Made by a program: the position numbers and the translations under genes. From a virus (lineage: Duplodnaviria; Heunggongvirae; Uroviricota; Caudoviricetes): 12,926 bases of DNA. The notes under the pieces were generated by a model. The model did no database searches, had not been told where the DNA came from, and worked only from the letters and a program-made list of their open reading frames with translations. This document shows positions 4,270 to 5,555 of this stretch, in pieces. Every line of letters begins with the position of its first letter. The first letter of the stretch is position 1. The stretch lies in the IMG/VR virus record IMGVR_UViG_2563366822_000002. One strand, 5' to 3'.

Positions 4270-4408
4270 ATGCCCTGAGTTGTACTTGTACGGTAAACAT
4301 GCTGGCTGCTATGTAATAGAGTTTTTTTAGCCTGTAACCTCTTGACGGCATTGAATTGCTTTTGTTATGAGTTGTAAGCCAATGTTATCATCTTGTATTG
4401 GGGTGGTT

Positions 4409-5125
4409 ATGAAGGATGGTGCGCTGCTCAGGAGTTCTTCACTTTTTATTGCCTACATGGGATGCCTTGGATGGGGGAGTGCTTATTTCTATGGATGGGG
4501 TACTTCTTTTTACTACGGCTTCCCATGGTGGATTGTAGGTGCAGGTGTTGATGATGTTGCCAGAAGTTTATTTTTTGCAGTTATCGTCATTGCTATATTT
4601 CTTATCGGTTGGGGTATTGGTGTTGTATTCTTTTTCGCAGTGAAAAGAAAACATTCTATGCAAGAGCTAAATGTATTTCGCCTTTATTTTGCTGTGGAAT
4701 TATTGTTTGTGCCGGCAATTATTGAGTTTTCTATATTGAGACAGAAGATTCAGGTACCTCTTTTGCTACTGTCAGCAGCGATTGCGCTGGCGGTTACAAT
4801 TTCGATAAGATCTTATGGGCGATTTTTATCGGTATCATGCTTCTATGATAAGCCATTTATAAAAAAACATTTTTTTGAGATTGTGATGATTGCTTTTGTG
4901 GCATATTTTTGGCTTTTTTCATTTCTGACAGGATATTACAAACCACAGTTTAAGAAAGAATATGAAATGATTAATTATAATGATGGTTGGTATTATGTTC
5001 TTGCTCGTTATGATAATTGTCTGGTTTTGTCTACTTCTTTCAATGCAGGTAGTAAAAGGTTTGTCATTTATCAATCAGCACAAGATAAGAATCTTCAGGT
5101 TGATATTGTAAGGACCAGAATTTAA
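4409..5125 (+). CDS. Hypothetical multi-pass inner-membrane protein (unrecognised; cargo gene)
   Basis: 759-nt ORF in markedly AT-rich DNA, where long ORFs rarely arise by chance. At least five strongly hydrophobic helix-length segments (e.g. LFFAVIVIAIFLIGWGIGVVFFFAV, VPLLLLSAAIALAVTISI, FFEIVMIAFVAYFWLFSFLTGYY), a Trp/Tyr/Gly-rich N-terminal region and a soluble tail of about 60 aa. Start ambiguous: ATG 4367, ATG 4382 or ATG 4409 (GGGG 5 nt upstream). No family recognised. Confidence 0.55.
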   Translation: MKDGALLRSSSLFIAYMGCLGWGSAYFYGWGTSFYYGFPWWIVGAGVDDVARSLFFAVIVIAIFLIGWGIGVVFFFAVKRKHSMQELNVFRLYFAVELLFVPAIIEFSILRQKIQVPLLLLSAAIALAVTISIRSYGRFLSVSCFYDKPFIKKHFFEIVMIAFVAYFWLFSFLTGYYKPQFKKEYEMINYNDGWYYVLARYDNCLVLSTSFNAGSKRFVIYQSAQDKNLQVDIVRTRI

Positions 5126-5555
5126 TTGGCTGCATAAATAATATTTTAAGTTGCAAGTTGGCTATTCGTAGGAATAGAACCTTAGGCATGCTGAATGCGT
5201 TTTCTGAACATTGTTTTATAAACTGTGTCTGCTTGCTGTTGTGATCCTGCTTTTAGTGATGGTGATGATGGATTTCACCAGCAGGATAATGTTGGTACTG
5301 ACTGATGGCGCTCTGGTCTGCGGCATTGTGGTATTGCTGTGGCCGATGATGAAAGAACAGAATGAATAATTCTTGACTTTTTTGTTTACTGTTTATTAAA
5401 AAATCAACCGCATGGTGAATCCTCCTTGGAGGGGCTAAATGATCGAGTTTTAAGGGCACGTAGCGAGTTCTGTTTGATCATTGCAGAACTTAGCGGGAGG
5501 CGCCATGCGTACATCACTAGTGTTATTCCTTTTATCATTTTCCTTGTGAGTTCTG

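Follow-up and report, generated by a model that had tools for sequence, protein, structure and literature searches.

Two described counterparts of the gene treated here are tfpB, which we take to be the unexplained open reading frame (ORF) in the pilin inversion region of Moraxella bovis/lacunata and for which we know of no established function, and STM1630 of Salmonella, the only member of their family with experimental data. A further point of comparison is positional: in Shiga toxin (Stx) phages, stx fills the slot that separates Q/tR′ from the lysis genes. Here, we analyzed a 12,926-nucleotide stretch of viral DNA (Caudoviricetes; IMG/VR record IMGVR_UViG_2563366822_000002; hereafter, the window), which is the late region of a lambdoid Escherichia coli prophage and in which this slot holds a membrane-protein gene, referred to below as tfpB. 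We regard its identity and its membership in the TfpB/STM1630 family as extremely likely. As to its functional class, we favor, tentatively and with slightly less than even confidence, a host-side lysogenic-conversion factor of the envelope or of host adaptation.

STM1630 is a 717-nucleotide "putative membrane protein" gene, and a published knockout primer encodes NSSMLLAYLGGLGWG, its N-terminus. In strain 4/74, the gene is expressed from its own promoter in medium inducing Salmonella pathogenicity island 2 (SPI-2) and inside macrophages, and its deletion led to higher macrophage replication (PMC6785131 Text S1). The same source reports that all ST313 isolates have STM1630 silenced by two single-nucleotide polymorphisms in the -10 element, that S. 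Typhi lacks the gene, and that STM1630 mutants have been cited as attenuated in calves and chickens. STM1630 was further listed among SPI-2 co-regulated/PhoP-type genes together with ugtL, pqaA, pagD, and lpxO (PMC2639726). A "required" call in transposon libraries (PMC3632133) reflects apparent rather than true essentiality, because STM1630 is bound by H-NS (PMC6785131 Text S1).

The window sequence at positions 4270–5400 is 100% identical to phage 434 (OL657226), where the corresponding gene, CPT_434_68 (UMO75332.1), is annotated as "putative membrane protein" and is followed by TciB; collinearity with phage 434 extends from window position 229 to 8781 at 98.7% identity. The protein is likewise identical to ECs0816 ("membrane protein") of prophage Sp3 in E. 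coli O157:H7 Sakai, a prophage that also encodes lpxR and the effectors nleB2-1, nleC, nleH1-1, and nleD. Among 5426 complete E. coli genomes, 692 (~13%) carry tfpB, at 1224 places and nearly always with at least 99% identity, and an intact coding sequence (CDS) is annotated for every sampled complete-genome copy (29/29). Viral scans with diverged queries mostly returned the 434 allele again. A 3-kb contig binned as Veillonella and carrying a 100% identical tfpB-tciB-nanS-p segment is almost certainly a binning contaminant and not a Firmicute homologue. The authors of the phage 434 genome obtained no function for the gene from HHpred, InterPro, or TMHMM (PMC9119081).

The precomputed Pfam tag PF27470 (TfpB) is attached to all 103 matches in a large protein collection, including a 100% identical protein; PHROG 1521 (unknown function) matches tfpB with an E value of 2e-154, and PGAP labels a relative "STM1630 family protein." Scans of Pfam-A, NCBIfam 20.0, and PADLOC yielded no meaningful tfpB match, and 56 family members searched against the same Pfam release gave no consistent weak match. 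The missing Pfam match is explained by the release scanned, which is older than PF27470; the protein is not an orphan. Profile searches among 1.84 billion proteins resolved a single coherent family of 72 cluster representatives (50% identity), whose carriers are confined to Enterobacteriaceae, Neisseriaceae, Pasteurellaceae, and Moraxella, all of them animal-associated. A search seeded with distant members recovered the Moraxella proteins named "protein tfpB" by the Joint Genome Institute; one of these (P0227) aligned with the window protein by BLASTP at 29% identity over 220 amino acids (aa; E 1e-23), and pilin genes of opposite orientation flank the Moraxella gene. The pilus ATPase called "TfpB" in Acinetobacter is an unrelated homonym. 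Salmonella STM1630 shares 46–49% identity with the window protein. Alignments and AlphaFold2 (AF2) modeling revealed a shared architecture of ~235–260 aa with five helices, the N-terminal pattern AY-YGWG...YYG-PWW...ARSL, and a small C-terminal beta domain. On the strength of this significant full-length similarity to named members, tfpB belongs to the TfpB/STM1630 family PF27470.

These results bear directly on an earlier note on this DNA, prepared from the letters alone, which had described the gene as unrecognized and had been unable to place it in any family. That description does not hold: the gene falls into PF27470, the STM1630 family, and PHROG 1521, is 100% identical to its phage 434 counterpart, and belongs to a sequence already known from classic phage 434, from O157, and from the Pfam, NCBI, and PHROG collections. 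The structure search that the note had recommended gave, with Foldseek, no significant structural relative.

The plus-strand ORF spans positions 4367–5125 and comprises 252 aa when counted from the first ATG. In the family alignment, Met at 4409 is the start of all 25 full-length homologues, and in the paralogue from enterotoxigenic E. coli (ETEC) plasmids, the upstream ATG is directly followed by TAA. On both grounds, the tfpB CDS is assigned to 4409–5125 (238 aa), and the alternative starts at 4367 and 4382 were rejected. The earlier note had proposed an ORF of roughly 240–250 aa at 4367/4409–5125, of which the second start option is the correct one; the range it discussed (4270–5400) also contains a second gene, TciB/DUF3927 at 5211–5369, which it did not mention. 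Its description of the region as far more AT-rich than the phage backbone was accurate, with GC contents of 36.1% for tfpB and 38.3% for the cassette described below versus 45.9% for Q and 55.6% for nanS-p.

At ~36–38% GC, where random stop codons amount to ~6–7%, the chance of an open run of ~250 codons was estimated at ~1e-8. Comparison with E. albertii showed 30 synonymous and 7 non-synonymous changes, corresponding to a ratio of non-synonymous to synonymous substitution (dN/dS) of 0.057; values of 0.05–0.07 were obtained between Salmonella subspecies for the family gene. Overall, the constraint on tfpB is put at a dN/dS of 0.05–0.1, and values across all comparisons made ranged from 0.05 to 0.2. 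By these measures, tfpB is an intact gene under strong purifying selection and not a chance ORF.

The AF2 model built from a 56-sequence alignment reached a predicted local distance difference test score (pLDDT) of 83.3 and a predicted template modeling score of 0.77, superseding a run with 26 close sequences (pLDDT 57). It contains long helices at residues 3–36, 47–79, 84–110, 116–137, and 155–181, followed by a five-strand C-terminal domain over residues 184–235, in agreement with the hydropathy profile, which shows an aromatic/Gly-rich N-terminal helix and four strongly hydrophobic segments. The earlier note had read much of this from the translation: at least five hydrophobic helix-length segments, a soluble tail of about 60 aa, and a Trp/Tyr/Gly-rich N-terminal region, which corresponds to helix 1 and loop 1, all reappear in the model. 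Family-averaged net charges are +0.85 for the N-tail, -0.4 for loop 1, +1.7 for loop 2, +0.2 for loop 3, and +2.8 for loop 4. Under the positive-inside rule, this distribution points to an inner-membrane protein with a cytoplasmic N-terminus, five transmembrane (TM) helices, and a periplasmic C-terminal domain.

Conservation across the family peaks in helix 1 and loop 1 (S10, S11, A15, W22, A25, Y26, Y28, G29, W30, G31, G37, P39, W40, W41, A51, R52, S53, and L54), followed by P102, Y166, F167, and G175, and by Y185, Y195, Y196, and F218 in the beta domain. On the predicted topology, these conserved parts (helix 1/loop 1, the outer ends of TM3 and TM5, and the beta domain) would lie at or near the periplasmic face. 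The family alignment displayed no catalytic-looking set of conserved residues, the conserved positions being mostly aromatic, Gly, Pro, and Ala with one Arg. Compared with envelope-modifying prophage enzymes (acyltransferase, glycosyltransferase, and O-antigen enzymes), tfpB gave neither a match in Pfam, NCBIfam, or the PDB nor a catalytic set. A sequence-profile search of the PDB with tfpB was empty, and Foldseek searches with the AF2 model found no significant structural relative (best E 0.8 in the PDB and 0.05 in BFVD). The C-terminal domain is weakly SH3-like; the SH3-like and MscS-like resemblances are non-significant and serve only to describe the barrel.

The gene and the elements that surround it are as follows.

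4181–4209, plus strand: candidate PR′ (TTGCAA, 17-nucleotide spacer, TATACT), overlapping the end of Q; from a consensus scan, with a position that fits the late promoter
4243–4270, plus strand: tR′-type intrinsic terminator with a 9-bp stem (4243–4264) and a T-run; from a scan, and a terminator is annotated there in phage 434
4342–4371, plus strand: candidate cassette promoter with -35 TTGACG (4342–4347), 18-nucleotide spacer, and extended -10 TGtTATGAG (4363–4371)
4362–4391, plus strand: second candidate promoter, TTGTTA (4362–4367), 18-nucleotide spacer, TATCAT (4386–4391); from a scan
4409–5125, plus strand: tfpB/STM1630-family gene, 238 aa, predicted five-TM protein with a periplasmic SH3-like C-terminal domain
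5211–5369, plus strand: tciB-like small membrane protein, DUF3927, 52 aa (Pfam DUF3927 E 3.4e-14; PHROG 1470 E 2.5e-17)
5426–5584, plus strand: small TTG-start ORF, 52 aa, hydrophobic C-terminus, putatively coding; phage 434 has a membrane protein annotated from the same base
5555–5581, plus strand: intrinsic terminator closing the cassette, 8-bp stem (6 GC pairs) and T-run; from a scan, and a terminator is annotated there in phage 434

This map shows a low-GC accessory cassette (candidate promoter, tfpB, tciB, small ORF, terminator) that has tfpB as its first gene and is inserted between Q/PR′/tR′ and the lysis genes of lambdoid prophages. The position downstream of Q, PR′, and tR′ and upstream of nanS-p and the lysis genes, as given in the earlier note, was confirmed by Pfam matches and by the promoter and terminator scan. 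On the left, homology begins at 4265 with phage 2B8, whose Q differs, at ~4307 with Escherichia sp., and at 4338 with ETEC; on the right, the boundary falls at 5691 (O157 Sp3, without nanS-p). The cassette has several hallmarks of a moron: a GC content of 38% versus 46–56% in its flanks, a location between essential modules, and dispensability, as it is gone from 434B, a variant that grows with the whole region replaced by DLP12 DNA (PMC9119081). Within the cassette, the gene at 5211–5369 satisfies the P1 TciB/DUF3927 family model (53 bits versus a cut-off of 25). The small ORF at 5426–5584 had no family match in NCBIfam, PHROGs, or PADLOC; its phage 434 version has 62 aa, whereas the window frame stops at 5584, and its end overlaps the terminator hairpin.

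Transcription of tfpB may have two sources. Q-modified polymerase would have to read through tR′ into tfpB. In addition, the extended -10 element TGTTATGAG, located at 4363–4371, and the -35 element upstream of it are candidates for a promoter of the cassette's own. The ETEC plasmid paralogue (58–59% protein identity), which has no Q upstream, is alignable only from 4338, 4 nucleotides upstream of the -35 element, and the only fully conserved upstream blocks are CCTCTTGACG and TTTGTTATG, which correspond to the -35 element and to TGn plus the first four -10 bases. Because these elements are conserved in a copy without an upstream Q, the comparison favors a candidate own promoter. The promoter suggested in the earlier note thereby gains support, with its -35 hexamer shifted from 4343–4348 to 4342–4347. 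Separately, the predicted PR′ start and tR′ (~4216–4270) would give a leader RNA of ~50–55 nucleotides in uninduced cells, which has no Rfam match. Counterparts of such a leader would be the lambda 6S RNA and the StxS small RNA of Stx phages.

To place the gene in its wider setting, we compared the genomic contexts of its relatives. In all 80 IMG/VR contigs with the identical allele, tfpB lies directly behind Q wherever the contig extends upstream; this Q is either Q82-like with lpxR upstream or of the 2B8 type without lpxR, and tciB follows tfpB in nearly every locus reaching that far. The earlier note had raised the possibility that the gene always sits between Q and nanS-p, of which the Q side stands and the nanS-p side does not, nanS-p being present in only part of the loci and absent from many copies, including Sakai Sp3. 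One IMG/VR contig (L051) carries tfpB, tciB, nanS-p, tciB, and nanS-p in succession, a tandem duplication of the tciB/nanS-p segment. Altogether, the cassette occurs behind at least four Q types (Q82-type, 2B8-type, DUF1133-type, and Yersinia PF06530-type). One relative is flanked by Q and by tRNA-Ile/Arg genes of the kind usual in Stx phages, and tfpB is absent from all sequenced Stx phages in the phage collection. In other clades, tciB is not linked to tfpB.

Outside phages, the contexts are varied. Relatives occur on 106 Shigella virulence plasmids (pINV) amid insertion sequence (IS) elements, beside iroBC and a Bor remnant, and between the effector genes sseJ and steB in Salmonella, where S. 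enterica subspecies keep the gene vertically at one chromosomal site. In Neisseria, Conchiformibius, and Avibacterium, the gene stands by itself with housekeeping genes around it, and in Rodentibacter it lies in a prophage early region beside a cI-like repressor, HicAB, and Bro genes. A scan of genome contigs returned five loci. The ETEC plasmid relative is divergent from the heat-labile toxin (LT) genes eltAB; on plasmids L005–L009 (2987–5714), this tfpB paralogue lies ~870 bp upstream of eltAB with STb and IS elements around it, an arrangement that fits a prophage late-region origin of the LT locus. Given this variety of contexts, a TfpB-family protein needs no fixed partner.

One neighbor nevertheless recurs. 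Four diverged tfpB lineages (100, 68, 66, and 55% identity) lie within 0.2–1.4 kb of lpxR, in divergent and convergent orientations; the lpxR copies share 70–75% identity with one another. The gene orders are as follows.

Window/434/Sp3 (tfpB 100%, lpxR 100% identical to the window): lpxR (minus strand) ... Q ... tfpB (plus strand)
Prophage type L037–L039 (tfpB 68%, lpxR 70–73%): Q, methylase, tRNA-Met/Lys, tfpB (plus strand), lpxR (minus strand), small ORF tagged PmrD, nanS-p
L122 (tfpB 55%, lpxR 72%): Q82-like, tfpB (plus strand), lpxR (minus strand), nanS-p, holin
Citrobacter rodentium chromosome (tfpB 66%, lpxR 70–75%, split): lpxR (minus strand), 178 bp, tfpB (plus strand)

The C. rodentium pair is found at the adh/trg site, which in Salmonella is occupied by STM1630. 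Within E. coli, this lpxR allele has 622 copies, 618 of which come with the full lpxR-Q-tfpB block, essentially one haplotype. The occurrence of four diverged lineages in both orientations suggests a linkage beyond chance expectation. Two of these loci have peculiarities of their own. The L037–L039 E. coli prophages (L038, 2709–2863 and 4001–6504) have a Stx-phage-like layout in which the toxin slot is filled by tfpB, lpxR, and a 105-aa ORF, and in the C. rodentium contig (L040, 3863–5717), lpxR consists of two overlapping ORFs of 164 and 175 aa, either frameshifted or mis-assembled, next to an intact, divergent tfpB.

A more specific proposal, which we consider rather doubtful, builds on this linkage: TfpB/STM1630 would be the inner-membrane half of a mobile two-gene envelope-remodeling module with LpxR, spread by phages and plasmids among mucosal pathogens. 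TfpB/STM1630 would license, restrain, or service the deacylation of lipid A with an aromatic, lipid- or glycan-binding fold that faces the periplasm. If true, it would add a new fold and a new step of host-induced lipopolysaccharide (LPS) remodeling to phage 434, O157, Shigella pINV, and Salmonella. The repeated lpxR linkage is the one lead worth following, as it could add a component to lipid A remodeling.

In the host-side reading that we tentatively favor, tfpB would be a lysogenic-conversion (moron) gene serving the bacterial host and not phage assembly. It would be silenced in the laboratory like other AT-rich imports, its own promoter would be active under host-like conditions, and Q read-through after induction would give high-level transcription. 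TfpB would present its conserved aromatic surface and the SH3-like domain to the periplasm and, working from the periplasmic side of the inner membrane, act on the envelope, with LPS/lipid A remodeling as the most plausible link; the expected effect would be on fitness at mucosal surfaces and not on resistance to other phages. A host-side role is supported by the phage-free relatives on Shigella and ETEC plasmids, beside iroBC, between sseJ and steB, and in Neisseriaceae and Pasteurellaceae. Of the three candidate functions put forward in the earlier note (superinfection exclusion or abortive infection, an envelope-modifying virulence factor, and lysis modulation), genomic context and the Salmonella literature favor the envelope/virulence option over exclusion or lysis control.

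Several observations weigh against this reading or its parts. The literature searches turned up neither experimental work with the gene of E. coli or the phage nor a family member with a demonstrated activity. Deletion of STM1630 caused neither a growth defect nor a loss of macrophage replication (PMC6785131 Text S1), and the hypermotility of an STM1630 insertion mutant (PMC4219756) was set aside, as it is not among the phenotypes confirmed by clean deletion (PMC4534456). The promoter scan did not exceed chance (4 sites found versus 5.1 expected), and the -10 hexamer of the cassette promoter lacks the usual final T. The topology of TfpB is a prediction only. As for the lipid A connection, many tfpB loci (Salmonella, Shigella pINV, ETEC, 2B8-type Q, and Neisseria) have no lpxR nearby, lpxR and tfpB may merely be favored cargo of one hot spot, and the PmrD tag on the 105-aa ORF, taken from a precomputed table, was not reproduced by our own hmmscan. 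The Rodentibacter early-region position, finally, is a typical place for exclusion or defense genes.

This last point leads to the highest-ranked rival reading, which we judge unlikely: superinfection exclusion or abortive infection, in which an inner-membrane protein blocks the entry of incoming phage DNA or kills infected cells and so protects the lysogen. A single-gene, horizontally mobile, AT-rich membrane protein in accessory positions of two unrelated phage types, the lambdoid late region and the Rodentibacter early region, would suit such a role. Its small polytopic inner-membrane architecture resembles the exclusion proteins SieA of P22 and gp15 of HK97, and in Moraxella the gene belongs to the locus of type IV pilin, which often serves as a phage receptor. 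Set against this are vertical retention at one S. enterica site under strong constraint, conservation on Shigella and ETEC virulence plasmids, repeated linkage to lpxR and not to defense genes, co-expression of STM1630 with intracellular virulence genes, and STM1630 phenotypes that concern animals and macrophages. No PADLOC model matched: a PADLOC-DB 2.0 scan, the defense-model check that the earlier note had called for, left tfpB, tciB, and the small ORF unmatched at E up to 1, a result that speaks to described systems only. Were tfpB an exclusion gene after all, a classic laboratory phage would turn out to carry a novel one.

The remaining rivals are all improbable. A late-function accessory, made only after Q antitermination and tuning lysis timing or protecting or preparing the envelope before holin triggering, would fit the place of tfpB immediately after Q/tR′ and ahead of the holin, endolysin, and spanin genes in the same direction. 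TciB-like and other small membrane proteins follow it, and Q read-through must, by inference from lambda and phage 82 biology, transcribe it. Yet most relatives, whether plasmid-borne, located in chromosomal islets, or found in Neisseria, Pasteurellaceae, and Moraxella, are without any lysis genes, the PHROG matches are all of "unknown function" with no lysis family among them, the cassette is bracketed by its own terminator, and 434B grows with the region replaced by DLP12 DNA (PMC9119081); we consider this role quite improbable. Still less probable is a type IV pilus- or pilin-associated accessory, which in enterobacteria would act on pseudopilin substrates in the inner membrane. The founding member does lie between two oppositely oriented pilin genes in Moraxella, and the other bacteria in which the family occurs, Neisseriaceae and Pasteurellaceae, have pili and are competent. 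Prepilins are anchored in the inner membrane with periplasmic domains, a layout that would fit a periplasm-facing binding surface. The genes of Neisseria, Avibacterium, and Conchiformibius, however, stand alone among housekeeping genes and not in pilus loci, no pilin gene was present near the enterobacterial loci inspected, and no co-variation with pilus genes was seen. The least credible of all is that tfpB is a decaying, functionless remnant hitchhiking with neighboring cargo. Decay does occur in the family: some versions are truncated or split (PHROGs 14371, 17164, and 3985 match parts only), strain TUM9803 has an IS-truncated pseudogene, some Shigella/E. coli plasmids give two-piece matches, Klebsiella plasmids hold short remnants, and the promoter is inactivated in Salmonella ST313. 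Against it stand the dN/dS values of 0.05–0.2 in every comparison, the preservation of the full length all the way from E. coli to Moraxella together with an N-terminal motif that hardly varies, and the intact annotation of 29/29 sampled complete-genome copies. The probability left over belongs to something not yet thought of.

Beyond the cassette, the window contains the following genes.

374–586, plus strand: ninF-like
576–1199, plus strand: ninG
1196–1861, plus strand: ninI-type phosphatase
2073–3032, minus strand: lpxR, outer-membrane lipid A 3′-O-deacylase (Pfam LpxR E 6.8e-40; Sakai ECs0814, "lipid A 3′-O-deacylase")
3508–4197, plus strand: Q, late antiterminator, Q82-like (Pfam Phage_antiter_Q E 1.7e-91; the 434/PGAP start is 3508)
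5667–7517, plus strand: nanS-p-type sialate O-acetylesterase (Pfam DUF1737, SASA, and DUF6645)
7965–8171, plus strand: P21-type holin
8171–8668, plus strand: lysozyme
8653–9102, plus strand: Rz
9252–9869, plus strand: Rha-type gene
10646–11155, plus strand: Nu1-type small terminase

Scanning the window for Rfam families and tRNAs gave no match. At its left end (13–219), the window carries the C-terminal end of an IS3-family transposase (rve_3/rve_2), and homology to 434 and other prophages begins only at 227–229; the IS therefore cut the nin region there. Positions 1862–3423 form a second low-GC island (36.8% GC), in which lpxR is placed after ninI and before Q. In the phage 434 record, a 29-aa fragment from the N-terminus of a lambda-type Q is annotated shortly ahead of lpxR (~window 1867–1956), which suggests that the original Q was replaced by an lpxR + ylcG + Q82-like block. 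From 8782 to 9876, the window departs from 434: the Rha/ORF11CD3-type regulatory gene (9252–9869) stands where 434 encodes an Iss/Bor-like lipoprotein. The two sequences are homologous again from 9877 on, in a stretch with a DUF3950 gene (10057–10251, minus strand) and the cos/Nu1 region.

Taken as a whole, the TfpB/STM1630 family is small, has no detectable structural relative, and is restricted to animal-associated Proteobacteria, where it resides on well-studied virulence elements, namely the effector prophage Sp3 of enterohemorrhagic E. coli, Shigella pINV, ETEC LT plasmids, and the Salmonella sseJ-steB islet. Among known systems, the exclusion proteins P22 SieA, HK97 gp15, and T4 Imm are likewise small, prophage-encoded inner-membrane proteins made in lysogens; they differ from TfpB in showing no detectable similarity to it via PHROGs, PADLOC, BFVD, or the PDB, the sequences themselves not having been compared directly. 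The classical lambdoid morons (stx, bor, lom, and nanS-p) have no sequence or fold relation to tfpB, which resembles them in organization, being low-GC DNA inserted in the late operon with a flanking terminator and a candidate promoter of its own. STM1630 (SL1344_1560) differs in being chromosomal, between sseJ and steB, with no phage context and with a promoter ~210 nucleotides upstream that is unrelated in sequence; it matches tfpB in length (238 aa), the N-terminal motif, architecture, and its character as an AT-rich import, at the identity given above. The M. bovis/lacunata TfpB, founder of PF27470, is longer (261 aa) and lies inside a type IV pilin inversion locus, and it aligns over its full length while keeping AY-YGWG...YGYPWW...ARSL, the TM5 end, and the YY-L beta domain. 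Closest of all are phage 434 CPT_434_68 and Sakai ECs0816. Their annotated CDS begins 27 nucleotides upstream, at window position 4382; Sp3 lacks nanS-p, and phage 434 has, after Rz, an Iss/Bor-like gene instead of the window's Rha-type gene. With the window, both share an identical protein and the gene order lpxR, ylcG, Q82-like Q, terminator, tfpB, and tciB.

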